Shown: positions 3,396 to 59,349, counted from the stretch's first letter. The stretch is DNA of 64,000 nt from Squalus acanthias (GCA_030390025.1 CM059432.1:17238001-17302000), one strand, 5' to 3'. Notes: generated from the sequence alone by a model not told the origin. A program made the numbers and translations.

Positions 3396-4786
3396 TACCT
3401 TCACCTCAGACTGCAGTGGTTTAAAAGGGCAGCTCACTAGCACAGTCTCAAGGACAATAAATGCTGGCCTTGCCAGCGATGCTCACATCCCATGAATGAT
3501 TAAAGAAAAGTTGCTTGCCCTGTTCTCAGGTTCCAGATGCCCTGTAGAGGATGTCCCACTGACAGTAACTTGTCGTGCAAAATCTGATCGAAAGTCTATG
3601 GGCAAGCGCAAGTCTAACGAACAGTGGGCGCCGTTCATTTGCCGCTCACAGAAAAGTCTGGCCCATTAGGTTCCAAAAAATTGACAATGCACCAAGTGTC
3701 AATCAACTCATTAGAAAATGAATCTCATGCCTTCACAACTAATTCCATATACATAAACTTCCATTCTCATTCAGCAACTTCTAATTCCATCTTATGCACT
3801 TTTTATTTCCTTGTTGCAACAAGAGTGCAGTTAAATCTATGAGAAGGTGGTGTCCTGCTGCATTTTAAACTTAACTCTGTCTTCACATGTCTTAAGACAA
3901 GTTGTTAGTTTGGGGTGGGGGGGGGGGGGGCAGCGGGGGACTGTGTCTGCTAGTTTTCTAGGTTGGCAGGTACACTCTTTAATAACAGTCATCTAGTCTT
4001 ATACAATGAACTTCACACACTAATATTTTGGTTACTAAGTAGAAGGACATAGGCTAGTTTAAATTTAAATAGGGTATGTGGTAATTTCTAATTTTGAGAG
4101 AAAATCTATACATAACCATTCAGCCAAGACTTCCATTTACAAGCATTGTCAAAACTGCACTAAACATCAGGAAACTGCATAAAACTTTAAACCATATTTC
4201 AGTAGGCATGAGGGACTCATGGGAGAAATTCAAAGAGCAAAGTAGTACAGAAGTGTCATAGTAAAATTACAGCACATTTGGTAGCTTTATTTTCTTTATG
4301 CTTGCATAATATCTAAATTGAGCTGTAGTTTTGTTGATCTTGAACAGTACAAAACCTTTTTCAACAGTTACAACTGGAAAACATTAAGGCCTAATTTACC
4401 CATGTGACTGTACCATTGCATGTGAAAATCTGACTGTGGGCCAAGCAATCCACAAGCTTACTTCAGCAGTTCTACGAACGTACCTGCTGGCTCCGTAGGT
4501 CCAGAGGCTTGTGATCCTGGGCCTCTCCACTACGATATGCGCAGAGGCCCAGGTATCCCAGGGGCGCAGGCAGTTCGCAAGCGTACCTGGGATCACGTGG
4601 GCCACGGGGAACCAATCAAAGAAGGGAATCCCCCTTCACACTTTTGACAGGTCTGTACGCACAGATCTGTCAAAAGTATGAATGGGGATCACTTAAACAT
4701 AAAATAATTTTTTTTAAATTGACATTAAATTAAATATTTTAAACAAAAATGTAAGTTTTTTTTTTTACAGGGCTAAAAATAAACAC

Positions 4787-5120: not shown

Positions 5121-5584
5121 ATTACCTTTTTTAAAGTATTTCTAAATTATAAATCAGTGAAATTTTTTAAGTTTTTAATTTTTTAAAACGCTTATGCTGG
5201 TAAAAGCAGGCATAATATGTTTAAAGGTTTTCAGCAGGTGGAAGTTGTGCAGAAAGAGCAACTCCCTGCTCGCGGAGGCCCATCTCCCGGGCATGCGTGC
5301 GATTTGTCAAGAGGATTCTTGACAGATCGCAAGTGCCAGGTTTCAGCGAATGCGCTTTGCATGCCTAAACCAGGCACTTGCGCAGCCCCTATGGGTGCAT
5401 ACATACCTCGTATGCACCTGTGGGGGGTCAGAAAATCCAGCCCACTGTCTTTCAGATTAACTAAGGTGTCCGAGTGTTCAACTGGAGATCCAGTGGCACT
5501 TTCCCCCCCCCCCCCAAAGTGAAGCAGAAAGTTTTTTCCAATGTTCACAACCAATGCCAAAGTAGATTAACTTACTTAGGTCTG

Positions 5585-12354: not shown

Positions 12355-13870
12355 CTCATCCTAGCTATGCCTGCCTTTTCGTGGGATATGTGGAACACTC
12401 TTTGTTCCAGTCCTACTCGGGTCCCCTCCCTCACCTCTTTTTCCGGTACATTGATGACTATCAGTGCCGTCTCCTTCTCTCGCCCTAAACTAGAACATTT
12501 CATTCGCTATGCTTCCAATTTTCACCCTTCCCTCACCTTCACATGGTCCATCTCCAACTCTTCCCTTCCTCGACTTCTCCATCTCCATCTCTGGGGATAG
12601 GTTATTGACTAACATTCACTACAAGCCCACTGACTCCCACAGCTACCTGGACTACACTTCCTCCCACCCCGCCTCCTGTAAGGACTCTATTCCATTCTCC
12701 CAGTTTCTCCGTCTCCACCGCATCTGCTCTGACGATGCCACCTTCCATACCAGTGCTTCTGACAGGTCTTCCTTTTTCCTCAACCGAGGATTCCCCTCTA
12801 CTGTGGTGGACACGGCCCTCGACCGTGTCCGTTCTATCTCCCGCACTTCTGCCTTCACCCCTGCCCCTCTCCCGGTACCACGATAGAGTTCCCCTTGTCC
12901 TCATCTTTCACCCCACCAGCCTCCACATTCAACGGATCATCCTCCGCCATTTCCGCCACCTCCAGCGTGATCCCACCACCAAACGCATCTTCCCCTCACC
13001 AACCCTTTCAGCATTCCGCAGGGACCGCTCCCTCCGCGACACCCTAGTCCACTACTCTACCACCCCCAGCACCCCTTCCCCCGGCACCTTCCCGTGCAAG
13101 CGCAGGAGATGCAACACATGCCCTTATACCTCCCCCCTTCCCACTGTCCAGGGCCCCAAACACCCCTTCCAGGTGAAACAGCGATTTACTTGTACTTCCT
13201 GCAATTTAGTATACTGTATTCGCTGCTCACGATGTGGTCTCCTCTACATTGGGGAGACCAAACGCAGATTGGGTGACCGCTTTGCGGAACACCTCCGTTC
13301 AGTCCGTAAGGGGGACCCCGAGCTTCCGGTGGCCTGTCACTTTAATTCTCCGCTCCACTCCCACTCTGACCTCACACTGTTCCACGGAAGCGCAGCATAA
13401 GCTCGAGGAACAGCACCTCATCTTTCGTTTAGGCACCCTACAGCCTTCTGGACTCAACAAAGAGTTCAACAATTTTAGATCATAACCTCGGCCCCCATCA
13501 CATTTATATTTTATTTTTTCATCTACCCTTTTGTTTGGCCCCCCCACTTTTTTTTCCTCCCAGAAGCTGGCAGCTGTCCTTCATTCTGCCAGTGCATTTC
13601 ACACTTCATTTAGCCTCAACCGGTTACATCAACACCTCCTCTTGCCGTGATTATCTCTTAACGTCTCTCAATGTCTCTTAATCTCTCCTTTCGTTCTTTC
13701 ATCCCCTCCCTTTTCCCAGCTTTATCCTTGCTTTAAATCTATTTCATTTCCTGCTTTTTTCCAGTTCTGACGAAAGGTCTTCGACCTGAAACGTTAACTC
13801 GGTTTCTCTCTCCACGGATGCTGCCTGGCCTGCTGAGTTTTTCCAGCGTTTTCTGTTGTTATCTCGGATT
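12355..13870 (+). mobile_element. Penelope-like retroelement, 5'-truncated (RT C-terminal half + GIY-YIG endonuclease + pLTR)
   Basis: PSYACLFVGYVE...FFRYIDD (YIDD at 12447-12458), FLDFSISI...YKPTDSHSYLDYTSSHP, IPFSQFLRLHRICS, CKRRRCNTC, NLVYCIRCSRCGLLYIGETKRRLGDRFAEH, QPSGLN. Frameshifted. Confidence 0.93.
13763..13799 (+). ncRNA. Minimal hammerhead ribozyme motif (family A) in the Penelope pLTR
   Basis: AGTT-CTGACGA(13767-13773)-a-AGGTC ttc GACCT-GAAA(13788-13791)-CGT-T-AACT. Confidence 0.75.
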
Positions 13871-14473
13871 TTTAACCTACGCAATTAATTCCCATTTCCA
13901 ATCTCCAGAGACTTCGCTGCCCTCACTAAACCTCAGTACACACCCACTATTACCTGAAGGGTCGCGATCTATCTTAGACCACTTCCTAGTTTCCCAAACC
14001 TGACCCCATTATCGCAAAGCCCAGACTACAATATTTAAATTTTTGTTAATATTGAATCGAATTGTGCGTATGGGAAATAGAGGCTGTTCAGTTGTGGTAT
14101 TTAATGTGGGTTGTAGCTCCCATTATCTTACCACTTAAGAGCTTCTCATTTCTGTTACTAAAACACTGAACAAGCGCACAACTCAGATTTCGCACGTCAA
14201 TATTCGTTGTCCATTAATCCACACAGCTGCTTGCGGGATTCACAGAAGTTAATTCTTTCAGCTTCATATATGCAACAAACAAAACGCAGGTTTCAAGTGT
14301 AAAATGAATGTTATACTACTTCTAAGGCTTCTAATCAATGAACTTTAGACATTCCAAATTTTTTTGGAATTATAATTTTAAGCCAATTTACATCAAAATT
14401 ATTTACAAAGCTTGAATACAAAATATTACTTGCACTGTAACTACTGAAATATGTGCAACAATTCCATATTTAC

Positions 14474-15555: not shown

Positions 15556-16844
15556 TGTCTTTTATTATGCTTCTTCCCATCATTGTGTATCTGCAGCCAT
15601 CTCCTGTTTTCCTTTTAAGCACTCTACTGGTCATTCTACTTCCTGTGTGTTTTCCCCATCCCATTGTTGTGTTTCTAAATACCATTTGTTATTTTTATTC
15701 CAGTTCTGATGAAGGGCCTGAAATGTAACCTAGTCGATCACAGATGTCAACTAAAGTGAACCCAAAAGCTCCCCATAATCAACCCACAATTCAGTCTCCA
15801 TACCAATATAAAAAAATCAAAACTACAGCTGCAGAATTTATCCCCATGACCATTATAGCGATTATAGGTTAAAGTGCTCCAGTGTTGCAATTCATATAGC
15901 AAAACTAAAGTCAATCGTGCTCAAAAAGAAAACTCTCCATGGCTGGAGTCATTCTAGACACAGAGGAAGATGGTGATCACCACAGCATCACTTCAGGAGA
16001 AGAGTCCCTGGCCTAACCATCTTCAGCTGTGTCATTAATGACCTTTTTCTGTAATGGATGGTCCTAACAATACAACCCAAAACCCTATTTGCTTAGGCTT
16101 GGGTCTTTTTTCTGGGATACCTGTGCAGGATATATAAATATATTAATAAATATCAGCCAGTCACCTAACTTAGTTAGCCTACAATTTTACTGCTCTGAAT
16201 TACTAACCATTGCTCATTTGCATCAACATAACCGAAAAAGCCTCGCCATCATTACAGCAATTGTCTACGATCGTTTTTCTTAAGGCCCACTTTGGCATTC
16301 CTGCTTTAGTTGCCCTCTTAATATTTCTCCTTATTTACTCGACAATTAATACTCGATAGTACTATGCTCATTTATTTACTATTTAATTATTTTAACTGCA
16401 TCGTACCGTGAGCGGTTTTTAAAATGGGGATATACTTCCTTGTTTAATGCCAATTTAGAAAAATAAATTTATCACAAGATATGAAATTAATTACATAAAA
16501 TTTATATTCCCCATACTGCCAAAAAAGGTTACTACAACACAGAGGTCAAGAGATCGACATAAATTCTACATCCAATCAAGGCTGAGCATCACTAAATTCA
16601 TAGGCGATCTCCTTTTGACGTGTCCAGATCAGATTATAACTCGAATGATGGGCAAACTAGTCTTGTTTAATCACAGGATAGATCTAAATACAAGATGGAC
16701 TTCTACTTTGTTAAAAAAAAATCTTTATCTTTTACAAAATCAGAAGCAAGCAAGCATGACAAATCAAGTGAAATAAAGAGGGTAGGACCATAAAAGTTGC
16801 AAACATACATGAAAGGGAATGAAAACAAGGTAGTATATTTTTTG

Positions 16845-16996
16845 CAAAAGCAAAATACTGTGGATGCTGGAAATCTGAAATAAAAATAGAAAATGCTGGA
16901 AATACTCAGCAGGTCAGGCAGCATCTGTGGGGAGAGAAACAGAGTTAACATTTCAGGTCGAATGCTGAGTATTTCCAGCATTTTGTGTTTTTATTT
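16845..16996 (-). mobile_element. Short Penelope-derived fold-back insertion with 14-bp TSD
   Basis: pLTR tail in minus orientation plus a short inverted copy. Flanked by tagtatattttttg at 16831-16844 and 16997-17010. Confidence 0.85.
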
Positions 16997-17109
16997 TAGT
17001 ATATTTTTTGAATGACTACTTCCTTCAAATAATCACCAGAGAAGACAAGCAACATAATCTCCTCAAACATAAATGATCTAGGCAAAAAGTAATTCCTTCA
17101 ATATAAATG

Positions 17110-20268: not shown

Positions 20269-20535
20269 CACGGTGGCATAGTGGTTAGCACTGTTGCCTC
20301 ACAGTGCCAGGGACCCAGGTTCAAATCCAGGTGACTGTCTGTGTGGAGTTTGCACAGTCTCCCCGTGTCTGCGTGGGTTTCCTCCGGGTGCTCCGGTTTC
20401 CTCCCACAGTCCAAAGATGTGCAGGTTAGGTTGATTTGGCTATGATAAATTGACCCTTAGTGTTAGGGGGATAGGGTGGGATATGCAGGCTTGATGGGCC
20501 GAAATGGCCTTTATCTGCACTGTGGGGATTCTGTG
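20269..20535 (+). mobile_element. V-SINE (HE1-like shark SINE)
   Basis: tRNA-like head (A box tggcatagtgg, B box ggttcaaatcc), V-domain tgtgtggagtttgcac...gcgtgggtttcctccgggtgctccggtttcctcccacagtccaaaga, CR1-like tail gatgggccgaaatggcct. Confidence 0.88.
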
Positions 20536-20935
20536 AACTCCCTGGTCAGTGTCTCCGGTTCCCTCCTGGCAAATCTATTTCCCAGTAACATCAAGGTGAT
20601 TCCCATGGACAACTGTGGCCGTTATTTTATAGACCACGATGGACTCCATTACAGGTACGAGTTTGAATTATCTGAGACAAGCAAGCTGGTCCTGCCTGAC
20701 CACCTCTTGGAGACGGAGAAGCTGCCGAGAGACTCCGAAAACTTCCAGCTTAGTGAGCTGATAAAATATATTCATCTGAAAGCTGGAAGAAAATGCCCAT
20801 GTTGCTTCCGATTTGTTGCCATTCGATTCGAATTAGAAATGTACGAAAATTATGGAGGAAGTTATCGACCATGAGATCGCCGGCCAAATTATGGTGCATG
20901 TCCCTGATCTCGCTGATGCAGGAAAATCTGGGTAA
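20536..20935 (+). pseudogene. Decayed KCTD-family BTB (T1) domain fragment
   Basis: SLVSVSGSLLANLF...MDNCGRYFIDHDGLHYRY, then LNYLR in the +1 frame, then back to SKLVLPDHLLETEKLPRDSENFQLSELIKYI. Matches the KCTD BTB consensus FIDRDG..FRYILxYLR..L.LP..F.E...L..EA.YFQL..L. Confidence 0.75.
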
Positions 20936-27200: not shown

Positions 27201-30200
27201 CCAGCTTACTTAACAGTTAACGCAATAGCCAGTTTCCTATATCCAACTGCTCCCCCAGCACCCAAGTTCACAAAGGCACTCTACCCATTTGGGACCCAGC
27301 TCAGACAGCACAGCCCATCTAAAACTAACCTTTCAGAGATTCCCACGTCTCCAACCCGCCCAGCTCATACTGGCACTCTTCTGTAATCTAGTTAAGCTGG
27401 TGCTCTTCTTCGCCTCCCCCACCCAAGTTCATGCTGGCACACTCCCTCTGCATTCCTTTAGTTAATGCTGGCACTGTCCTTCCAACCCCATCCTAAAGGC
27501 TTCCTCCATCAAAGCACTGTTCCCACAATTATCATTTAATTGCCCTTGCTTTTATTAGCATTCATTTGCTCCCCTTCCATTGCCATCCCTCCTACCAGAC
27601 ACTGGCTGCTAAAGCACCAGGTCTCTTCTTTCCCTCTTCATCAACGGCAGCAATTGCAGCCTCTATATGCTGTAGGCTGGAACTATCATTTTCAAGAGTT
27701 TCTCCTTACAGTATAAAGTGGTGCAATCTCCATTAGTGGTGGGAGCAGCAGAGGAGACCCAGCCAATCCAGTTGAAAGTCAAACTTGGGTAGGACTGGGA
27801 TCATTTCCAAGCTCCTAAAATGCTGAAAGTCAGCATATACGTGAAGTGGTTACCAACAGGTTCAATCATGTACTGAACTACATCTCAGGCATTTGATTTA
27901 CAGCATCAAATTGCCCTATTTACATAATACAGAAAACAGAACTCTCTACAATGTGGTTTACATATCTCTAGCCCTGAGCATTTTTCCCACAAAATCAATT
28001 TGTAATAGCTTTCTGCTAGTTTAAGAGCTGAAACCATTTGCTAACATTTTGGGATTTTATGCTAGAGATTGTATTCTGCTAGTGTCACTGACCACTCCAC
28101 AAGTGGCCTTGACCTATGAACTTGAGTGAGTTACTTAATGGTAACTAGCTAAAAACTAAATAGCAAGTCAGTCAAACATAGTACCCTTGCCACTGCATTC
28201 TGGCTTTGTATAACCTTGTCTTTAGTAGGCAGATGAACATATATGACATCCAACCATGGCTCAGTCTTTAAACTAATTTATTTAACAGTAAATGAACAGT
28301 ACTCAGTACAAACAGTATATTTACTGTAGCTTACAAACTTCCTCAAAATGTCAAACAAATATGTTTCTACTGAGCTACTTCTCAACATAATTATTGAAGC
28401 ACTGGCACGCACTTAATGCAAATAAGTCACTGATGCAGCTCAGTTTTGCTGCTGGCCTCAAGCTGATTGACGAGATGGATGGCAGTCCCAGATGTGCTTG
28501 CACAGCCATAAAGCTGTCCAAAAAGAAGCAATAAACAGGCACCGACTTCTTGCGAAGGCAATACCCACAATGTCACCCTAAGCAAGCTGTCAATCAAAAT
28601 TACTCCAGAATATCAATCACCTAGCATTTTTGGAATGGTTTCATTCATCGTTCTGTGCCACTGCATTTGACCTTCCATAATTAATGTTGTCTTATCGTTG
28701 GTGGACACAGCAACAGATTGACATCAATAGCTGTATTAGCATATTAAACTCACTTTTGTTCAACTGGGACTTGCTGAAATTGTACTGATGTAGCCATGGT
28801 CAAATAATGGGATGAATAATTTCATACTAGTAATACAGAAATGGACATGGATAGTATCTATAGATCATAGAATGTAAGATCACAGCAGTTAAACTGTCAG
28901 CTAAATTATGAGGTAATATTACCTGCATTATTTAATTTAACCCTATTTCACTTAACGTTTACCAGGATAGAAGGGGAAAAAAAAGCTTTCCAGCATTGTT
29001 CAACCCTTTTCTATTGTTGAAATGCGATAGGTCAGGGCAATTCTATTTCCATAAACACGTCAACGCAGTCACACTGAACAATACTAGGAACTAGATCCTC
29101 TACTTTTTCCCAGGACAAGGCTGAAGTAGTCCAGGAGGTGGTGTTATGCATTTCTCACGTCTCAGCTGAGAATCAACAGTTTTAAGACTATATTTTGTAG
29201 GTCTACATACACCCAAAACACATTCAGCCATGAGGAAGTTTTGAACAAGCCTATTTACTTTGGCATGTGTGGTTTTAAAATGTTTTGCTTGAAACAGCTT
29301 AACAACAGACCTGTTGTTGTAAATAAGCAAATAGATGATACATTACTTAGTAATGGAAGTAAAAAGTTAATCCAGGTTGTTTTTTTTTTTAAAGTGAAAA
29401 AATGATACATCTAAATACATTTTTGAAATACCAGTTTACCAAATGTTGATACAAATCAGGAGTGGTCCAAGAGCCAAAAGATCACTATTTGAGAGGCTGC
29501 AAATGCTTTTATTTAAAAAAAAATAACTGTCGAGTCACTGACTCACTTGTCAGCACAGTTCTAGAACTAACTAATTCAGTGCAGAGAACACACACACACT
29601 AATGGATATTTAAATTATAAGGTAGCAACATAATCGTGTGTTATCAAAAAGAGATTAGTTACTGGTTAACTATAAAGGTCAGAGCTCTTTTAACCATCAT
29701 TCCGAATTCAAGATGCTACATTTTTTGCAGTATTACTGGGTTAGTTGTTAAGGGAACTTCTCTACTGTATTCATTACAAGATCCTCTTTAGCAACGTCAC
29801 AAAGGCAGCAATTGCAATTCGGCTATTTGACGGAGCAAACCCAACTGCTGCCCCATTTATTTAAATTACATTTGAAAGGTTGTTGCTAATAAAAATACAA
29901 TATTAGAAGTACTCCCAGCCATGCCAATTCTTAAGGGCACTTACTATGAACATTAAGCTTCTGTTACATTTGGATCATACTTCCTGTATAATTACCTACC
30001 AATTTATTGTGGGTTACAATATTATGGAACAAAGATTAAAATCCTACTACACACATTAATAATCATGAGGAGACCAATATATAATCATTGACTGCAAGTT
30101 AGCAATTACCGAAGATATTGGAAGTAAACAAGCTAAATAGTAAGCAACACAGTTTCTCTGCTTGGTGAATTCAGCCGGTGTTTACAGAAATGGAAAAAAA

Positions 30201-30676: not shown

Positions 30677-30908
30677 CTATCTGCAACAATACTGGCGTTA
30701 CCAAGGCAGTTTCCATAGCATAACAGAACTCCCTGCCAAACATCACTGCACCGTGCATCACCCATAATTTGACAGGAATGCGATCGATGGACCCCTCACT
30801 AACAGTTTCATCACCATTCTCCTTGTCTTCCTTCTTTTTCAATTTTGTGGTTAATTCTTGTGCTTGCATAGATTCTGTGTCATCATTCTGTGGAGCCATT
30901 GCTGCCAT
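30677..30908 (-). CDS. SLC45A4: SLC45A4 first coding exon (232 coding bp); MFS transporter of the SLC45 family
   Basis: [19 protein letters not shown]...[44 protein letters not shown](G), characteristic of the SLC45A4 N-terminus. G|GTGAGT donor, phase 1. The second ATG (30897-30899, MAPQN) has better Kozak context and may be the true start. Confidence 0.96.
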
Positions 30909-35434: not shown

Positions 35435-37580
35435 TTACTCTCACTCTGGCCGTTCCCCCTGGTACGGCCCTCATCTTCGCTCCCTTAAGTCCAAGTGACG
35501 CAGACTTGAACGGATATGGCGGACAACGGTTTAGCCATTCACTGCCAGATCTGGCTGGACCACATAAAGCATTATTGGGTCATGCTGTTGTCTGCCAAAA
35601 TTGTTCACTATTCCAGAATCATTCTGGAATGCAAAGATAAACCCCGGCTTCTATTCTCCACTGCTAACCATTTTCTTAAACCCCTCTCCCTGGTCTCCTC
35701 CACCCCCACCTCCGACAAGTATGAGGAGCTCATGGACTTTTGTCTCTAAAATTGAGACCATCCGTTCAGTTGCCTCGGCCACTACCCTTCCTTCCCCTAG
35801 CCCACCGGGCCAAACTTCCTCCAAGGTGCTCCCCCTGCCCTAGCCCTGAACTCACATCTTTCTCCAGTTTCTTGCCGATCTTCCCTCATGACCTCTCCGC
35901 GCTCATCTTGTTCATGAGACCCACTTCCTGCTCCCTCGACCCCATTCCCACCAAATTGCTGACCACCCAACTTCCTTTTCTGGCTCCCACGTTAGCCGAC
36001 ATTGTTAACTGTTCCCTCTCATCAGATACTGTCCTCCTTTCCCTCAAATCTGCCGTCATCATCCCGCTCCTCAAAAAACCAACCCTTGACCCCTCCGTCC
36101 TTGCAAACTGCCGCCCCATCTCCAATCTCCCTTTCCCTTCCAAAGTCCTTGAATGTGTTGTCGCCTCCCAAATCCGTGCCCATCTTTCCCGCAACTCCAT
36201 GTTTGAATCCCTCCAATCAGGTTTCCGCCCCTGCCACAGTACCAAAACAGCTCTCAGTCACAAATGACATCCTTTGTGACTGTGACAAAGGTAAACTATC
36301 CCCCCTTGCCCTTCTTGACTTGTTTGCAGCCTTTGACACTGTTGACTACTCCCATCCTTCAACGCCTCTCCACCGTTGTCCAGCTGGGTGGGACTGCACT
36401 CGCCTGGTTCCATTCTTATCTATCTAATCGCAGCCACAGAATCATCTATCTAATCACAGCCACAGAATCAGACTTCTCTTCCCGCTCCCGCATCATTACC
36501 TCTGGTGTCCCCCAAGGATCTATCCTTGGCCCTCCCATTTCTCATCTACAAGCTGCCCCTTGGCAACATCATCCGAAAACACAGCGTCAGTTTCCACATG
36601 TATGCCGACGACATAGAAACTAGGAGCAGGAGTAGGCCATTCGGCCCGTCGAGCCTGCTCCACCATTCAATACGATCATGGCTGATCATCCAAATCCAGT
36701 ACCCTGTCCCTGCTTTCTCACACAGAATCCCCATCGAGCCTGCACCGACACATATCCCACCCTATCCCTGTAACCCCACGTATTTAATTCCCCTTAACAT
36801 ATCCCATCCTATCCCTGTAACCCCACATATTTAATCCCCCCCTAACACGAAGGGTCAATTTATCATAGCCAAATCAACCTAACCCGCACATTTTTGGACA
36901 CCCAGCTCTACCTCACCACCACTTCTCTCGACCCCTCCACGGTCTCTGTCAGACTGCTTGCCCAACATCCAGTTCTGGGAAGACCGAAGCCATGGTTTTC
37001 AGTCCGCACCACAAACTCCGTTCCCTAGCCACTGACTCCATCCCTCTCCCTAGCATCAGTCTTAGGCTGAACCACACTGTTTGCTGAACCACACTGTTTG
37101 CAAACTTGGTGTCATTTGACCCTGAAATGAGCTTCCAACCACATATCCGCAGCATAACTAAGACCGCCTATTTCCACCTCTGACATCGCCCGTCTCTGCC
37201 CTTGCCTCAGCTAATCCGCTGCTGAACCCCTCATCCATGCCTTTGTTACCTCTAGACTTGACTATTCCAACGTACTCCTGGCTGGCCTCCCACAATCTAC
37301 CCTACGCAAACTTGGTCATCCAAAACTCGGCTGCTCGTGTCCTAACTCGCACCAAGTCCCGTTCACCCATCACCCCTGTGCTCGCTGCCCTACATTGGCT
37401 CCCGGTTAAGCAACACCTTGACTTCAAAATTCTCATCCATGGCCTCACCTTTCCCCCCACCCAAAGCTATCAGCACTCCTAATTCTGCCCTCAAGCATCC
37501 CGGATTATAAAATCACTCAACCATTGGTGGCCATGCCTTCTGGTGCCTAGGCCCTAAGCTCTGGAATTCCCTACCTAAAC
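35435..37580 (+). mobile_element. L2 LINE ORF2 (RT), frameshifted, interrupted at 36614-36896
   Basis: PTSCSLDPIPTKLL, PLLKKPTLDPSVLANCRPISNLPFPSKVLE, LQSGFRPCHST, LLDLFAAFDTVD, GVPQGSILGP, MYADD|TQLYL, IQNSAARVLT, LHWLPVKQ. Confidence 0.95.
36614..36896 (-). mobile_element. Chimeric V-SINE 3' part fused to a CR1 3' end
   Basis: About 36720-36896 matches the V-SINE at 20410-20535 (reverse complement); 36614-36720 matches the CR1 3' end at 59350-59465. gaca flanks both sides. Confidence 0.8.
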
Positions 37581-39724: not shown

Positions 39725-41140
39725 TTTATTTGTTCAAGATGTGAGACACAGGCAAGGCAACTTTATTGCCCATCCCTAACTGCCCTGAGGTGCTTGTGGG
39801 CCTTCTCCTTGAGCTGCTGTTGTTCTGACAGTGGTCCAAATGATGATTTAAGTAGGGAATTCCAGGATATTGACCCAATGGATGGTATGCAATTTGGAGT
39901 TGATGGCATTCCCATAACATTGCTGCTGTTGTCCTTCTCCGTAGTAGAGGTTGCAGGGGAAGGAGGTACTGCACTGTATCCTGTACATAGTGCAGCTACA
40001 GTGTGCCGATGGTGGATACGGAGTCTAAGTGACAGGGGCACCGATCGACAAACTGATATGCCCTGGATGGTGTCAAGCTTCTGTAGTTTTGTTGTGGCTG
40101 CACCTGTAAGTTAAGTGGTGAGTATTCCATCACATTCTTGATTTGAGTCTTGCAGATGGTGATGTGTCAGGAAGTGAGGCACTTGTTGCAGACCACCAAG
40201 TCTCTACCTCGACCATGTAGCCATGGTGTTGATATGAATGATCCAGTTAAGCTTCTGTTTAAGAGTGGCACCCAAGATGTGATGGTGGTACTGTTGAATG
40301 TCAGGGGGAGATGGGCAGGCAACGTTCCCCAACAAGTCACTTGTTAGCCCAAGCCTGGATGTTATCCCAAGCCTGGATGTTATCCAGGCCTTTCATCATT
40401 GCCCAGTCAAAAGCCAGGAGTCACCAACCTAACACCATGTTGGAAGCACAATCAGCACAGGGAGTGCAGCAGTTCAAGATGGCCCACCAAGACCGTTACA
40501 GGGTAACTAAGGATGGCTGTCAAGGGCTACTTTATCAGGAGCTGCAAATGGAGCTGAAATCATCAATAAACAGCCCTGCTCCTGACTTAATGATGAGAGC
40601 AAAAGTCACTGTTGAAGTAGCTGAAGATGGTTGGTCCAAGGACACTTCCCTGGCAAGGTGGAATAGTTGCCACTTCCTCTATGGATACAGCTGCAACACT
40701 CAAGAAGCTTGACACCATCAAAAACAAATCAGTTCACTTTATTGGCACCTTACCATTGGCTGCTATGTCCAATGACCAGCACACTGTGGCTATGATAATG
40801 TAACATGTACAGGATGCATTGAAGGAAATTACCAAATTTACTTCAACAGCAGCTTCCAGCCCTGCAAAACCTACCACCTAGAAGGACAAAAGCAGCAATA
40901 TCAAGGAAACACCAGCACCAAGTTCCCTCTGAAGCCACACACCATCCTGACTTGGACAGATCTCTGTTCTTTCATCATTGCCCAGTCAAAAGCCAGGAGT
41001 CACCGACCAAACACCATGTTGGAAGCACAATCACCACAGGGACTGCAGCAGTTCAAGATGGCCCACCAAGACCGTTACAGGGTAACTAAGGATGGGCAAT
41101 AAATGAAGCATGGCCAGCAGCACACCAGTCCCAGAACACA
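39725..41140. mobile_element. Old copies of the 52447-55706 LINE family in both orientations
   Basis: 39725-40640 (minus) and about 40690-41140 (plus) align by eye to 52460-53420. Strongly diverged. Confidence 0.65.
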
Positions 41141-42344
41141 ATTTAAAAAAAACAACCATGGCAATAGGGATGTTGTAATTGGCATCAGTTCCTGTATGTT
41201 GGACTAAAATCCATCTTTCAATACCGCCCAGTGATATGTTCTGTAAAATTACATGTATACAGATCCAGGCAGGACAGGCCAAAATGCAGCATGATACACC
41301 TTGTGGTGCCAATTGCTTGGCCAGCAGTGCCAGCTGAAATTTTCTTTTGAATATTTCACTGTCTAATGTATTGCATTGCTCTACTATCCATTGCACTAGG
41401 CATTTGAGTCCATCCATTTTGGTACTCCTCACATTTTTGGCAGACACCAAAAATGCTACAGCTGTAAAGACAGGAAGTGTGTCCAATAACATTTTCCCAT
41501 CATTAACCTACAATTTACTTATGTTTGTTCAAACATGGGTAGACGTATTAAATATCTGCCATCACTTTTTAAAGTGGAAAATCTGAGATCAGCCATTTCT
41601 GCTCGAGCATTTTTAAACAGATGAATGCTTTTTCAGTAATAGTGCTCACCTCACTAATGGTGCTGGATGGGGACAGGGAGGAAAATCAGGTTGGGGTGCA
41701 GCAATTAGTTTGGAAGCGACTGAGTAGCAGATGTTTGAGAACAGCTGGAATTGGTTCCCTGGCACAATTTCCACTCCCACCCAGAATTTGGGGGATGGGG
41801 GGGGGGGGGGGAAAGGGGGAAAAATAACCCATATAAATTAAAATATTTGGGTGTAGGAGTAATTCAGCTGACATGAGGTCTTAATGCAAATTTATTACAT
41901 ACAGTTACAAAAATTGTATCAAGACACACTCAGCATTTTGACTGTGGTCAAGTAGAAAGTACTTGAATCAGCAACTATGAACTCTAGATGCTGCTGCGCG
42001 AAGATTGGACACAGCATACTTAAGGATAATGATTTCAAGCTCAGTCTGTGGGCCCAACCTCCACAGAAAAACTAACAAGCGGCTTAGAACAATTAATGTC
42101 TCATGCAGAATGCGGATCCATCAACAATTGCTATATATGAGCACATGCAAGCCATCTACAATTAAAAACTAGAAATTGATCACAAGGGTAGTCAAGATAC
42201 TTCTGGCATCATGAACCCAGAAAAGATACAGACATCCTTAATTCACCAAGTTACTTTCTGGAGTAGAATTCTTAACTTGGGTTTAACCCAATAAACATTC
42301 ATTAATTAGCACTCTCCTGGCTTAGCAAGTGTCTTATTTAAGTA

Positions 42345-43060
42345 TCATGATGTGGAGATGCCGGTGTTGGACTGGGGTGGACAAAAATGAGAAGTCGCAC
42401 AACACCAGGTTATAGTCCAACAGATTTATTTAAAATTACAAGCTTTCGGAGCACTGCTCCTTCGTCAGGTAAAGATACAATGAGGGAATCTCCAATATTA
42501 CACAGTATATAAACACAAAAAGCAATTTGTCTGCAGAGATACAATCTTTTGGGAGGCATTACATCAAAGACACACCAGAGCACAGCCAAGACAATGAGAT
42601 GGGTCACAGGGGGCCCAACGTGTCAAATCCTGCTGTCTGCAGTTGAGCTTTTAACTTTTTTTTTCCCCCTTTTGTGTTTTTTTGGTTTGGTTTTTTTTGT
42701 GGTTTTTTTTTTAAACTGGAAAGACAGACAACGACAACAGACAGTCTGTCTGTCCAGTTTTAAAAAATAATAAAAAACACAAAAAACACAAAAGGAAAAA
42801 AGGTTAAAAGCTCAACTGCAGACAGCAGGATTTGACACGTTGGACCCCTGTGACCCATCTCATTGTCTTGGCTGTGCTCTGGTGTGTCTTTGATGTAATG
42901 CCTCTCGAAAGATTGTATCCCTGCAGACAAATTGCTTTGTGTTTATATACTGTGTAATATTGGAGATTCCCTCATTGTACCTTTACCTGACGAAGGGGCA
43001 ACAGCTCCAAAAGCTTGTAATTTTAAATAAATCTGTTGGACTATAACCTGTTGTGCGACT
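42345..43060. mobile_element. Fold-back (palindromic) non-autonomous Penelope-like element with 13-bp TSD
   Basis: Arms of about 42390-42729 and 42744-43063 are inverted repeats. tcttatttaagta at 42332-42344 and 43061-43073. Hammerhead motif in each arm. Extra ~45-bp tail only on the left. Confidence 0.88.
42436..42472 (-). ncRNA. Minimal hammerhead ribozyme motif (family B)
   Basis: Minus strand reads TTAC-CTGACGA-a-GGAGC agt GCTCC-GAAA-GCT-T-GTAA. The plus-strand mirror copy at 42983-43020 has GAAA changed to AAAA. Confidence 0.75.
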
Positions 43061-45349
43061 TCTTATTTAAGTAGCCACTGAATGACGTAGGAAGCAAGTC
43101 TACTTCAATTACACTGTGCCTTGCCAGAAAGTAAAACAGAACTTAACCTTCAGTAACCCATTTTCCATTCTACAGATCATATATCTTGCTCAAACATAGT
43201 TCAATCCCTTTACTATCTTATGCCACAACTTAATGACATTAAACCATTGTATATTGGCTAACATTGCAGTAAAACAGCATGCATTAAACTACCTCTTCAA
43301 ATTGCACATTTAAGGAAGTTTCTTTTAGCAAGAACCAGAATGGACCCAAGATACAAGAGTCATTCTCATCTATACAAAGCCTGGCATAAAACAAAACCCA
43401 TGAAGTGGAAATGTAGATCATGTCATTTACACACATTACAGTACAAAATGCTATACTAGTATGAGATGACATCAGAATAAAGTGATACTATTGGAGTAGA
43501 CATATCCGGTTCAGAGAAATCCCTGCTTACTTATAAATCCAAACTAAAGATGTGCAGTCATTGCATATACTGAGTGCATCAAGCCTACCTAGATACATAT
43601 TACACTCCAATTGGCTTATCCACAAAAATAAAGTTGGAAAGGTTACAAACTGCAACTCTCAGTTTTGCTATCACAATTTAGATTACCAGAACGCCTCTTA
43701 AAAACCCTGTTAACGTGCATATCTTTTACTCGCCATACAAGAAATTTACACTAACTGAATCTTCCTTAAATAGACCTGCCAGGTTTTCCCACTTGTGCAC
43801 CCTGCCAGCTTCAATTTGCCTTTCCTTCCCACTCACTTTAAACGGACAGAGGTGGGTGAGGGGGGGGGGGGGAAATAAAAAAAAATCAAAAAAAAAAAAA
43901 AAAAAAAAAAAAAATCGCAGGTGCTGAAGCCAGCAGCTACTCAATATTTTAAACCTTTGTGGTATTTGAGACTGATTTCTTGAAAGTTAACAATTTAAGT
44001 TATGTATGCAGGATTTAGTCAAGAGCTGCAATAAGTTAATTTGTCTTTTCACAGGTGCTGACTGACCCGTTGTGTATTTCTAGCATTTTTTTTTTGCTTT
44101 TACATCAAATTTCTAGTTTTATTTTCTTTATTTGTAAAGATTGAGAAACTATGGCTGAAATAAGTTTGGGGAAAAATAATATGCCTACCAAGCCATATAT
44201 AAACATTAAAGGAGCAGGGGTGAAATAGAAACAGCTAATGACTGTCAAAACTAAATCATATTTTAATCACCAAATACAATACACAAACTTTCTGGGAGAT
44301 AACCGTACCTGAATTGGCAGACCATTAACAAAGTTTTCACTAACAGTAAAATGAACCATCAGGCGGCATACCAGGGCCTAGGCAGCGCCATAGTTAGATA
44401 TTACTTAATATCTTCTAATACCTAGTCTAGAACAGCAAAAAGGGCAGAATCTGGGACCAATTTGACCTCAATATACCATTAATTTTTGAACGAGCAATTT
44501 AGACCCACTGCACGCCGTTTTCAGATCTGTGCCAATTTGGATATACCATCACCATAAAACTAGCAGCCGGTTCATAAACACCTCTCCCGATATGCCCTAC
44601 AAATACACTCTCATTGCCTAATCATAGCAAAAAAGAGGGAGAAAGCAAGGTGTTTTTGGGGTGGAGCAATGAGCTGCCAGAAATAGAAGCATAGAATCAT
44701 GTCAACCCCCTGTGGCAGACCTGGTAATCCAACACTGGAGCCGGACAGTACCAGTGGTATTCCAGGGCACTGTTTGACCAGTGAACCTAGCTCACTAATG
44801 GAAGATGTCCTGTCCCCCCACCCAATTGCTGGGACAGGGGTGAGGGGTGCAGGATTGTCAGCAAGGGTTGAAGGAGCAAGAGGCAGCTGAATGGTGGTCT
44901 CATTCTTGTTGACAAAGAAGTCCATAAGCTCTTTCTACTTGCTGGATTTTAAGGGGAGGAGGGGGGCACAGGAGAGATGTTTAAGGGGTTGGCAGTAGAC
45001 AAAAGAAGTCATTTTGGCATCTGGCTTCTGAAGGGAATTTCTGGTAGCCTGCAACTTCTCACCAAAAGCTTCAAAATGGTACCTTCCTTCCATTTGGATT
45101 ATAGTTTCAGGCATCTGCACCTCGTGCAGAGTTTAAAAGGCAAAAAGAAAGCAGAGATGCTATTCATTGGTTGTACCCATCTTTAGGAACCAACATACTG
45201 CAATTTATTTATACCAGTATATTGTAGTAATATTAATTTTTAGCTTTTGCCTGTTAAGTGACTGCAAGAAGACAAAGTGTAAACACAAGACAGACTTGCT
45301 TTATATTAATATAGATGCAGTGAAGGGCAATGGTCAGTTTAGAAAGTTT

Positions 45350-48191: not shown

Positions 48192-49719
48192 CTTTAGTTA
48201 AGAGGCCTTCAAGATGATGATTTGGGTGCAGACTGGACATATTCCCACAAGGGGGAAAAGGAAGGGCATCCAAAGTTAGAGCTCCCTGGATAATGAAAGA
48301 TAGAGATTAAAATGAAACAGAAAAAGGAGGCTTATGATAAATACAAAAACAAAGCTGGAAATACTCAGCAGGTCAGGCAGCATCCGTGGAGAGAAAATAT
48401 ACTCTCTCTCTACAGATGCTGCCTGACCTGCTGAGTATTTCCAGCACTTTCTTTTATAATTCAGATTTCCAGCATCTGCAGTATTTTGCCTTTGGTTTAT
48501 GATAAATGTTAGGTCCATAATTCAGTCGAGAACCAAGTTGAATACAGAAAGTACAGGGGAGAACTGATAAAGGAAACAAGAGGGGCAAAGAGTGTATGAG
48601 AATAGATTAGGTAATATAAAAAGGAAACCCAAAAGTCTTTATAAACAGTAAAAGAGTAGTCAAAGGAAGGGTGGGGCCAATTAGGGACCAAAAAGTACAT
48701 TGGAATGCTCTTCACTAAAGATGATGCTGCCAAATCACAGTAGAGAAATTAGGGAGAGAAAAAAAGAGGTACTTAAAATGTAGGCAGTGCTCAAAGTAGA
48801 AAAGTCACCTAGTTCAAATGGGATGGGTGCGGAGGGAAGCAAGGGTGGAAATTGTGGAGGCTCTGGCCACAATCTTCCAATCCTCCTTACATATGGGGAT
48901 GGTGCCAGAGGACTGGAGGATTGCAAATGTTAAACCCCTGTTCAAAAGGGGGAGGGGGATAAACGTGTCAATTGCAGGCCAGTCAGCTCAACAACAGTGG
49001 TGGGGAAACTTTTAGGGACAGTCATCTGGGATGAAATTAATTGGCACTTGGGAAAATATGGATTAATAAATGAAAGCCATTTGTTCAAGGAAAATCGTGC
49101 TCGACTAAGTTCATTGAGTTCTTTGATGAAGTAAGAGAGAGAGTGGAGGAGGGTAATGCGGTTGATGTGTACAAAAGCAAAGAAGTTATGCTAAACCTTT
49201 ATAAGACACTGGTTAGGCCCCAGCTGGAGTAGTGTGGCCATGCTTTAGGAAGGATGTCAAGGCCTTAGAAAGGGTGCAGTGGAAATTTACTAGAATGGTT
49301 ACCAGGGATGAAAGACCTGTTTCATGGAGACACAAGAGAAACTGTGATTGTTCACCTTAGATCAGCGCAGGTTAAGGGGAGGTTTGATAGCTGTCCAAAA
49401 CCTTGAAGGGTTTTGATACAGCAAATAAGGAATAACAGTTTCCAATGGCTGAAGAGTGGACAACCAGAGGACACAGATTTAAGGCAATTGGCAAAAGAAC
49501 CAGAGGCAACACATTTTTTTTTTAATCAAACGGTGATGCTGATCTGGAATGCACTCCCTGAAAGGGTGGTGGAAGCAGATTCAAATAATAACTTTCAAAC
49601 AGGAATTGGATAAATACTTGAAGAAAAATTTGCAGGGCTATGGAACTATTTGGATAGCTTTCAAAAAGCTGGCACGGGTACGATGGGCCGAATGGTCTCC
49701 TTGTGTTGTATCATTCTAT
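48192..49719 (+). mobile_element. Internally deleted old CR1
   Basis: EALATIFQSSL..GMVPEDWRIANVKPLFK and LYKTLVRPQLE remnants. CR1 3' end cgatgggccgaatgg...attctatg. Confidence 0.85.
48343..48496 (+). mobile_element. Short Penelope-derived hairpin insertion with 11-bp TSD
   Basis: gctggaaatactcagcaggtcaggcagcatc...gatgctgcctgacctgctgagtatttccagc inverted repeat plus tail. ttatgataaat at 48332-48342 and 48497-48507. Confidence 0.85.
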
Positions 49720-56400: not shown

Positions 56401-58228
56401 ACTTATTCAGAAAATAGAAGCACATGGGATTAAAGGGACCGTGGTACGTAATTGGCCAAAGGATTGGAGACAGTAGTGCTGAATGGCTGCTTTTCTGACT
56501 GTAGAGAAGTATGCAGTGGGGTCCCCAGGGATTGGTATTAGGACCATTGCTTTTCTTCTTGTATATAAAATGACCTGGACTGGAGAGTACAATTTTGAAG
56601 TTGCAGATGATACAAAACTTGGCAACATACTAAATAGTGAGCATGAGTGTAGCAGACTTCAGGAGGACACAAAGACTAGTGAAATGGGCAGTCACAATTT
56701 AATGTGGATAAGTGTGAAGTGACGCACTTGGGAGGAACAACATGGAGAGGCAGTATAATCAAAATAGTACTATTTTAAGGGGGGGGCACAAGAGAAGAGG
56801 GACCTGGGGGGTCCATGTTCACAAATTTTTGAAGAGGTCAGGGCAAGTTAATAAGGCCATTAAGAAAGTGTATGGGCATTGAATACAAAAACAAGGCAGT
56901 CATGTTAAATCTTTACAAATCACTAGTTAGGCCTCAGCTGGAGTATTGGGCCAAAAATTGATCCCGCTGCGCGAGAGTACGCACTGCGTACTCTCGCGTA
57001 TTCTCTCTCCAATTGCCGGTTTTCTGCATGCACTGCGCATGCGCTGAAAACCGGCACTTGGTCTTTGGAAAAGGGGGCGGTTCCTCGGTGCACCGCGTGC
57101 ACACTACAGGCTGCGCGCACGCTGTGCACTTAGTGCTTTGGACGCGCAGGTAAGGACGGAAGATTTTAGAAACGAAAAAAGGAGTAAGACCCACTTTTAA
57201 CAAGGTAAGTAGTGAATTAAGTATTATTTTGAATTTTTTTTAACAGGTATATCTTTTTAGAGACTTTAAAGACAGGTAAGTTTATTTTTATAACTTTTTA
57301 AAAGATTTTAAATTTTTTCAAAAATTTAATTTTTTATTTAAAATGGTTAATTTATTTAACTATACTTATTTTATTAATGATGGTTTTTTTTTAAATTTAA
57401 TTGAGGTTTAGCTGTTATTTTGGGTGTGTGCAAGATTCATAGCTTTCACAGCACGTATGTGAAACTTATGAATGGAAGATGGTGTGCTGCCATTGGCTCT
57501 AACTGAGTCACGTGATCCCACAGCTCGCACGAATTCACTACGCCGGTGGGATACGCAAGCACTGCCCAGCTGATGTCTAGAACATCAAGTTTGTGCGAGC
57601 TGGATCTGAAAAAGCCAACGCGGAGTGAGAGATCGCGCCTGCTCCTTACCCCCGCGGGAACAGAGCGAGATCAATTTCTGGGCCATGATGTACAATTTTG
57701 GCCACCACACTTTAGGAAGCATGTCAAGGCTTTGGAGAGGGTACAGAGGAGGTTTACCAGGATACCACCAGCGAAGAGGGATTTCAGGTATGGGGAGAGA
57801 TGGGAGATGCTGGGATTGTTCTCCTTACATCAGAGAATGTTAAGGGAATACCCAATAGAGGTATTCAAAATAATATGGGGTTTTGATAGAACAAATGGAG
57901 AGAAACTGTTTCCTCTGGCAAGTGGGTCAGTAAACTGTGGTCACAGATTTAAAATAATTGAGTAAAAGAAACTAGGGAGCAAATAAGAATGTTTTTCCCC
58001 CCCCCCACAGAGGGTTGTTAAAATCTGGAACACACGGCTTGAAAGAGTGGTGGAAGCCGATTCCATAGCAACTTTCAAAAGATATTTGCACATGTACTTG
58101 AAGAGGATTAGTTTGCGGGGTTATGGGGGGAAAAAGCTGGGGTGCGGGATTAAATTGGACAGGTCTTTCAAACAGCCAGCACAGGCACGACAGGCTGAAT
58201 GGCCTCCTTCTGTGCTCCAAGATTCTAA
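56400..58228 (+). mobile_element. Old CR1 3' region interrupted by a MITE
   Basis: LIQKIEAHGIKG and VADDTKLG, then LYKSLVRPQLEY | VQFWPPHFRKHVKALERVQRRFTR across the MITE. CR1 3' end at about 58190-58228. Confidence 0.85.
56948..57684. mobile_element. MITE with 21-bp imperfect terminal inverted repeats
   Basis: Left gggccaaaaattgatcccgct versus reverse complement of the right end ggcccagaaattgatctcgct (18 of 21 match). Interrupts a CR1 ORF. AT-rich core, CpG-rich hairpin ends. Confidence 0.82.
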
Positions 58229-58234
58229 TACGAT

Positions 58235-58355
58235 AGCAAAATACTGCAGATGCTGGAAAATTGAAACAGAAAACGCTGGGAAAAACTCAGCAGACCAGGC
58301 AACATCCATGGAGAGAGAAACAGAGTTAACGTTTCAGGTCGAAACCCTTCGTCAG
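58235..58355 (-). mobile_element. Penelope pLTR tail with hammerhead core (family A)
   Basis: Minus strand CTGACGA-a-GGGT ttcg ACCT-GAAA-CGT-T-AACT, then the pLTR tail. Possible 9-bp TSD agattctaa (58220-58228 and 58354-58362). Confidence 0.75.
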
Positions 58356-59349
58356 ATTCTAACCCTTTATAACCTTGAAGACCTCCATCAGGTCACTCCT
58401 TAACCATCTCACCTCTAGCGACAGTCTCAAAATTTCAAGTTCATCATCCCTGGTAAGAATCCAGTGAATCATCCAAGTAGCCACATTCCCTTTATGTTCA
58501 TGTTCAGGCTTTTGTGTGGTATCTTATCAAATGCTTTTCAAAAGTCAATGTAAATGTACTTCATTTCCTTCATCCATCTTCTCAAGGTTAGTCAAGCACT
58601 GCCTGCCTTTCAGAAACCTGCGCTTCCTGGCCCTGATTGGTTCTCATTTGTCAAAGTAGTTAGTAATTTAATTCCTCATTATAGGCACATATTTTACAGC
58701 AAGTTGCGCTTATATACAGCACCTTGAACATAAAGCATTCCAAGTCGCTTACAAATAACTGAAGCAAGAATAAGTAGGCTATAATTTACAACCTTTATGG
58801 GGGGGGGGGGGGGGGGGGGGGGGGAAGAGAGAGAAAGAGACCCCCCCCCCAGATAATTTTTTCTTTCTACTGAATTTTTGAAAATTACACTCAATGTGCA
58901 TCATTACATCTGCAGCTTCACTCAAGATCCTTAGATGTGAACCACCAAATCCAAGTGCTTTTTCTACTTCAAATCGGAACAATTTCTTTAGGACCATATC
59001 TCTGAACAACAACTCCCACTAACTGTTGTACAATTTCAATAACCAACACTTGTGGAAAAAAGGTGCTCATCTAGTATTTCTGCCACTCATTCTTCAGTAC
59101 AAGCTGGTGTCTCATCTCTTCTAAGCTGCCCAACCCCTACCTTGACTATCTTATCAACATGCCTTATAGACAGCCTTTTTATTGCCCTTCGTTTGTTAAT
59201 TTTCTCAGGCTTGTTTAGAATTTTTTTGGGAACTTTCCTATATATTTTTCATTTCTCCCCTGTAAGCATTAAATGTTTCCATTTTTTTTTAAAGTTTCAA
59301 ATTTCAACTAATCTCCCTATTCATCTATGGAATGCCAGCCTTTGATGCA

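Follow-up and report, generated by a model that had tools for sequence, protein, structure and literature searches.

The fold-back upstream of SLC45A4

The window, by which we mean the whole 64,000-nucleotide stretch of Squalus acanthias DNA that was analysed, contains the first coding exon of SLC45A4 on the minus strand (ATG at 30908; E = 3e-28 to solved SLC45A4), which is the orientation that a first-pass annotation of this DNA had given the gene. Upstream of SLC45A4, 11.4 kb from that ATG, lies a fold-back of ~740 bases (42332-43073). No upstream exon or promoter of SLC45A4 was found in the window, and a CpG-island scan gave no candidate promoter upstream of where the element lies; the sole scan window to pass between 31 kb and 64 kb, 35751-36250, falls within a LINE-like frame. 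Other features observed in the window were a 135-codon open stretch on the plus strand (20467-20874), which lies in antisense between the first two coding exons of SLC45A4 and has no Pfam match; a 127-nt direct repeat (97% identity, ~580 nt apart) in LINE-like sequence at 40390-41095; and short inverted repeats unrelated to the element at 4628-4689, 28902-28934, and 56970-57061. The fold-back comprises the following features.

42332-42344, no strand: left target-site duplication (TSD), 13 nt, A/T at 11 of 13 positions, identical to 43061-43073
42345-42729, minus strand: left arm, a terminal repeat (pLTR) from a high-copy Penelope-like family, truncated at its 5' end and with the 3' end outward
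42345-42389, minus strand: Penelope "tail", 45 nt, left arm only, without a counterpart on the right arm
42436-42472, minus strand: minimal type I hammerhead motif, intact, with cleavage predicted after 42440, matching the descriptor given in the available part of PMC4209133
42500-42655, minus strand: inner part of the repeat, lineage-restricted (depth high in organisms A and B but 0-1.9 in E)
42730-42743, no strand: loop, 14 nt, the head-to-head junction, with short AC-rich repeats
42744-43063, plus strand: right arm, an inverted 5'-truncated copy without the tail, its last 3 nt overlapping the TSD
42983-43020, plus strand: second hammerhead, carrying G12A at 43009 and predicted to be inactive
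43061-43073, no strand: right TSD, identical to the left TSD

The near-perfect palindrome described around the loop in the first-pass annotation was borne out by alignment of 42390-42729 (340 nt) with 42744-43063 (320 nt), which gave 305 matches, 14 substitutions, and 8 indels, four of the indels lying in an A-rich tract. The perfect 13-bp TSD was likewise recovered, with TCTTATTTAAGTA occurring at both 42332-42344 and 43061-43073; as a chance control, 0 of 3000 random pairs of 30-nt windows placed 0.5-1 kb apart had a stretch of >9 nt in common. A single repeat of this kind brackets both arms, which upholds the proposal that the unit was inserted in one event, and the extra ~45-bp tail was confirmed on the left side only (42345-42389). 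The first three bases of the right TSD also fit the element (TCT) and, after one mismatch, four more do (ATTT). At the other end of the arms, a tandem-repeat row (42724-42743) covers the loop region and a 6-bp palindrome lies across the arm junction (42737-42749). No ORF was found in the fold-back copy, in agreement with the absence of coding capacity noted earlier; the 14 arm substitutions showed no clear A-to-G bias, and no second fold-back copy was found elsewhere in the 64-kb window.

On the minus strand, the start of the tail (42372-42392) contains a word resembling a branch point, with its A at 42388, as well as a run of pyrimidines and an AG; the tail's other end has an ATG. Family copies have their internal 3' end close to this putative branch A, and positions 42388 and 42390 were spared by variants among the matches listed. 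The spacing is short, and the signals amount to no more than a hint of an intron acceptor in a 5' UTR.

To judge by an orthologous contig of 375 nt (record 9), the corresponding site in organism E is likely empty. The contig matches the flank over 42028-42344 and stops at the last base of the TSD, and its 31 letters past 42344 were not aligned to the element, the reference covering the left flank and left arm.

A high-copy family with two 3' ends and a hammerhead motif

Contigs from 4 of 24 public runs were mapped on 41200-42743 (left flank and left arm), with the A-rich tract and the palindrome centre excluded as repeats; the depths reported here are sums over contigs, not copy numbers. The arm belongs to a high-copy family: in run X1, summed depth was ~8 on the unique flank and 1e5 to 4e6 on element bins. 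Run X5 gave no cover on 41928-42291 (~55 in 100 of the run read), and X6, presumed to be an RNA run, gave next to no depth there on the unique flank, which has no bearing on expression. The outer part of the repeat (tail and hammerhead) was abundant in all three organisms compared (A, B, and E). The inner arm is also family sequence, recurring at high depth in organisms A and B, and is therefore not the unique sequence that the first-pass annotation had set against its own account. The stretch 42500-42655 is likely the 3' UTR/promoter portion of the repeat; a TATA-like tract can be read in its sequence near 42505-42510.

Loose contig ends accumulated at two places, an outer pile at 42345-42347 (73 in X1; 46, 63, and 61 in X5; 15 in X6; 247 in X14, among the matches listed) and an inner pile at 42388-42390 (70 in X1, 56 in X5, and 259 in X14, likewise among the matches listed). 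Both piles were present in 3 of 3 DNA-type runs, X6 having the outer pile only, among the matches listed, and beyond both piles the contigs ran into mixed AT-rich flanks (agreement ~0.4). The inner pile in X14 is partly mismatch clipping, the consensus keeping family-like letters for ~9 nt further, and the true inner ends are thus spread over ~42381-42390. A tabulation of sites where many molecules begin or end listed none in the mapped stretch. The element's own two outer ends coincide with these two 3' ends of the family: the outer limit of the tail, which adjoins an ATG (42348-42346), is the outer site, and the outer limit of the right arm is the mirror of 42390, the internal site. This coincidence speaks for a palindrome formed at the site in the course of insertion. 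In addition, position 42492 and its mirror are C in both arms, where A makes up 68,063 of 70,042 (X1) and 31,003 of 31,478 (X5) of summed depth; a base so rare in the family (97-98 in 100 differ) and common to both arms points to one template, with the proviso that this is one unphased position.

Family variants with internal skips (42499 to 42617 and 42434 to 42496) and opposite-strand joints in family contigs (42384/42474 and 42423/42460) were also observed, and would point to deletion subfamilies and other inversions in the family (42434-42617 region). Contig joints linking the tail to the poly-G near 41810 were rejected as low-complexity matches.

A hammerhead core had been placed near the outer end of each arm, the minus-strand copy intact and the plus-strand copy with GAAA changed to AAAA, and comparison with the minimal descriptor agreed on both counts. 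The minus-strand motif has its core from 42468, a bulged A, a 5-bp helix II, GAAA at 42447-42444, a palindromic GC, a CUU triplet, and a 4-bp helix I; the change in the plus-strand copy is G12A at 43009 and falls at a CpG. G12 has a catalytic role in the hammerhead. The element as a whole has decayed since its insertion and is likely inert as a ribozyme. Because a Rfam search of the fold-back returned no hammerhead model at E <= 1 (0 of 13 matches) and the isolated minus-strand motif was no more stable than its shuffles (z = -0.32), the hammerhead call rests on the published minimal descriptor and is a call of motif only. The 13 Rfam matches themselves, to microRNA hairpins and each under its own gathering score, were rejected as generic hairpin matches. 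The homodimer of the isolated hammerhead was predicted to pair via helix II and not as a catalytic dimer, and is uninformative. In X14, the helix I base at 42437 was changed in 1,828,024 of 1,897,441 of depth, and the loose-end consensus behind 42470 (74 contigs, agreement 0.45) starts with a base that compensates this change, the two being unphased; such variants are weakly suggestive of a conserved ribozyme fold. Exact-motif scans gave 0 matches in viral contigs, 0 in prokaryote genomes, and 0 and 1 in metagenome contigs, and the single metagenome match (L001) was rejected as a 23-nt chance match within a bacterial coding region.

Folded as RNA, the fold-back reached -513.5 kcal/mol (z = -46.7 versus 20 shuffles) with a longest perfect duplex of 60 bp, in keeping with the earlier expectation of a long dsRNA hairpin if the locus is transcribed. 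The expectation that the transcript might instead cleave itself fared less well. Any transcript, in either direction, has a single hammerhead in sense orientation with the antisense arm transcribed first, and within the folded unit helices I and II of the intact hammerhead had a pairing probability of <2e-9 and the motif a mean pairing of 0.94 to the opposite arm. Because of this order and these probabilities, self-cleavage from the locus is predicted to be absent, the ribozyme being predicted unable to fold inside the hairpin transcript. Editing or dicing of the hairpin RNA is possible and, if the locus proves to be transcribed as part of SLC45A4, the hairpin would plausibly serve as a substrate for editing, like other inverted repeats.

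Origin of the palindrome

BLAST identified a second Penelope-like, hammerhead-bearing family at 8 loci in the window, of which two are head-to-head with one tail and have TSDs of 14 and 11 nt. These two loci and a related frame are as follows.

16845-16996 (with flanks 16831-17010): head-to-head second-family insertion, tailed left arm of ~118 nt, right arm of ~33 nt, 14-nt TSD
48343-48496 (with flanks 48332-48507): near-symmetric second-family hairpin, 11-nt TSD, near-equal arms, the right one tailed
12494-13871: disrupted Penelope-like frame that retains a GIY-YIG remnant, then a 3' terminal repeat whose minimal hammerhead lies at 13767

The GIY-YIG remnant, near a second-family copy, was matched at E = 3e-4 with 21.4 bits versus a Pfam cut-off of 22.6. 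The hairpin at 48332-48507 has no hammerhead because its pivot lies downstream of the motif. Solo copies of the second family end at either of the two sites, with ends near the internal one at 5123, 13871, and 44094, and the internal site is thus used without any fold-back. Since the second family has the same layout, the layout is a habit of the class and not a property of the 42332-43073 unit. One solo copy (58220-58362) has the first base of the hammerhead core as its 5' end and a 9-nt direct repeat near its ends.

We are confident in classifying the element as a de novo inverted Penelope insertion, and it is likely to be an ordinary one-off Penelope-like insertion and not a new self-copying element. 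The Penelope-like affinity suggested in the first-pass annotation was supported by the hammerhead motif, the two 3' ends, and the layout, and it is on these that the family's identity rests, because no reverse transcriptase or endonuclease frame was linked to the element's family here.

Less certain is the way in which the second arm arose, a step of the Penelope cycle listed as unresolved in the available parts of the literature on these elements. We lean modestly towards an origin in which two 5'-truncated terminal repeats were laid down in one insertion, the enzyme priming from both cut strands. A Penelope-like reverse transcriptase-endonuclease would cleave the two strands of an AT-rich target ~13 nt apart. 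The RNA would then be primed twice, at its tail end by one of the DNA ends and, ~45 nt further in, at the internal start site by the other, the latter aided by short homology (TCT, then ATTT after a mismatch). Both cDNAs would copy the same 5'-truncated RNA to its end and would then be joined head-to-head. Since both would run to the same RNA 5' end, near-equal arms, a single tail, and the arm-shared base at 42492 would be expected. To our knowledge, Penelope reverse transcriptases are without RNase H, and the RNA would stay available for a second copy. A search by title, with subscription papers outside its coverage, found no publication of the double-priming account beyond PMC11167929.

An alternative with the same class and one-off origin is a possibility that we rate seriously, if below double priming: a single tail-primed cDNA would turn at the centre and copy itself, and the endonuclease would cut at the tail boundary before joining to the target. 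The near-equal arms, the 14-nt loop, the 6-bp junction palindrome, and the rare base at 42492 in both arms are all compatible with this course of events, and the near-perfect symmetry and junction palindrome fit self-priming as well as they fit double priming. In the portions available, PMC3846280 reads junction palindromes as self-priming and PMC8557442 ascribes the tail to endonuclease resolution. Set against this, the loop is without a stem able to prime, and at 16845-16996 the arms are unequal (~33 versus ~118 nt) with no priming homology visible at the junction; moreover, solo copies too end at the internal site, and the enzyme of the anole starts there in vitro according to the available part of PMC11167929.

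Two further readings would make the palindrome a standing property of a family, or no biological unit at all. That a non-autonomous fold-back family is copied as a whole 720-nt unit, or that a short non-autonomous family with a fixed 5' end routinely inserts as this exact palindrome, is improbable. The inner arm does recur at high copy number, in organisms A and B only, the inner limits of the two arms almost coincide, and the contig mapping left the palindrome centre uncovered, so the pivot may recur; yet the supposed 5' end of such a unit coincides with a 3'-end hot spot of the family, the layout recurs with other pivots in the second family, there is a single copy in 64 kb and no tandem hammerhead array, and folding of the ribozyme within the unit is predicted to fail. 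An assembly artefact, or two independent adjacent insertions, is very improbable, even though palindromes are hard to assemble, no single contig spans the mapped stretch, and the X1 contig from the unique flank enters the element by 26 nt only, below the bridging threshold of 31 letters. The arms differ by 14 substitutions and 8 indels, one 13-nt TSD surrounds both, and X1, which has other flank alleles (41285, 42113, and 42300), has the same left junction.

As a bolder variant of copying from two start sites, the family RNA might be short (~385-400 nt) and non-autonomous, with a fixed natural 5' end, and be copied twice so as routinely to seed the genome with long perfect hairpins. We consider this doubtful; if true, the family would be a lineage-restricted source of dsRNA with a ribozyme switched off by its own antisense arm. 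The locus itself matters little, being one copy of a very abundant family with a layout already described. It is nevertheless a clean test case: its ends lie on both start sites used by the anole enzyme in vitro, its TSD is intact, and a relative has a site that is likely empty. Genomes of the shark type appear to be rich in such copies, whose tails, pivots, and arm-shared variants could separate double priming from fold-back.

Comparison with known systems

Non-LTR retrozymes, in the available parts of PMC7229834 and bioRxiv 10.64898/2026.07.22.740005, are head-to-tail tandem units with a hammerhead in each and a circular RNA. The fold-back resembles them in being non-coding, in its type I hammerhead and Penelope pLTR derivation, and in a unit size of a few hundred nt, but differs in being head-to-head with one intact motif. 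No head-to-tail hammerhead array was found in 41500-44000, which held 6 short tandem-repeat rows only, and the fold-back is for this reason not a retrozyme; by prediction (helix probabilities <2e-9), its transcript also lacks the foldable, cleaving ribozyme of that class. The earlier view of a retrozyme-like, self-propagating element consequently finds no support, given the missing array and outer ends that are the family's two 3' ends.

Parallels are found among the minimal hammerheads of metazoan Penelope-like elements, for which the part of PMC4209133 that was available describes opposite-strand pairs ~100-700 bp apart; the pair here is ~520 bp apart. The motif agrees with those hammerheads in its bulged base before helix II, G10.1-C11.1 pair, 4-bp helix I, palindromic 15.2-16.2, and lack of helix III, and differs in a helix II of 5 bp versus 7-8 bp and in the loss of G12 from one copy; the available part names no sharks.

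The enzyme of PAc, a Poseidon element of the anole (Anolis carolinensis), acts on both strands, cutting and extending each; it has two start sites, one at either boundary of the tail, favours AT-rich DNA, and is predicted to be a dimer, as described in the available part of PMC11167929. The present element shares with PAc the two tail-bounding start sites and an AT-rich target containing ATT, and its distance of 124 nt from the tail end to the start of the hammerhead core is near the spacing that the same source implies. In PAc an open frame begins within helix II and continues across the tail; there is no such frame here, and an ATG stands at the tail end.

A further likeness is to the complex insertions of EN+ Penelope-like elements. 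Inverted 5'-truncated copies with a one-sided tail are typical of Penelope-like elements in the available parts of PMC8557442, PMC3846280, and PMC8969392, and the element has in common with the EN+ insertions described there its head-to-head 5'-truncated copies, one-ended tail, junction palindrome, terminal-repeat minimal hammerhead, and a TSD within the range of ~8-14 nt. It departs from them in having no ORF between the repeats, in arms that are near-equal and long, and in a tail of 45 nt versus the 30-40 nt quoted. Two alternative 3' ends bound the tail, as in EN+ Penelope elements, and the inverted head-to-head copy with a one-ended tail and an AT-rich TSD has its like at 2 of the 8 second-family loci in the same window.
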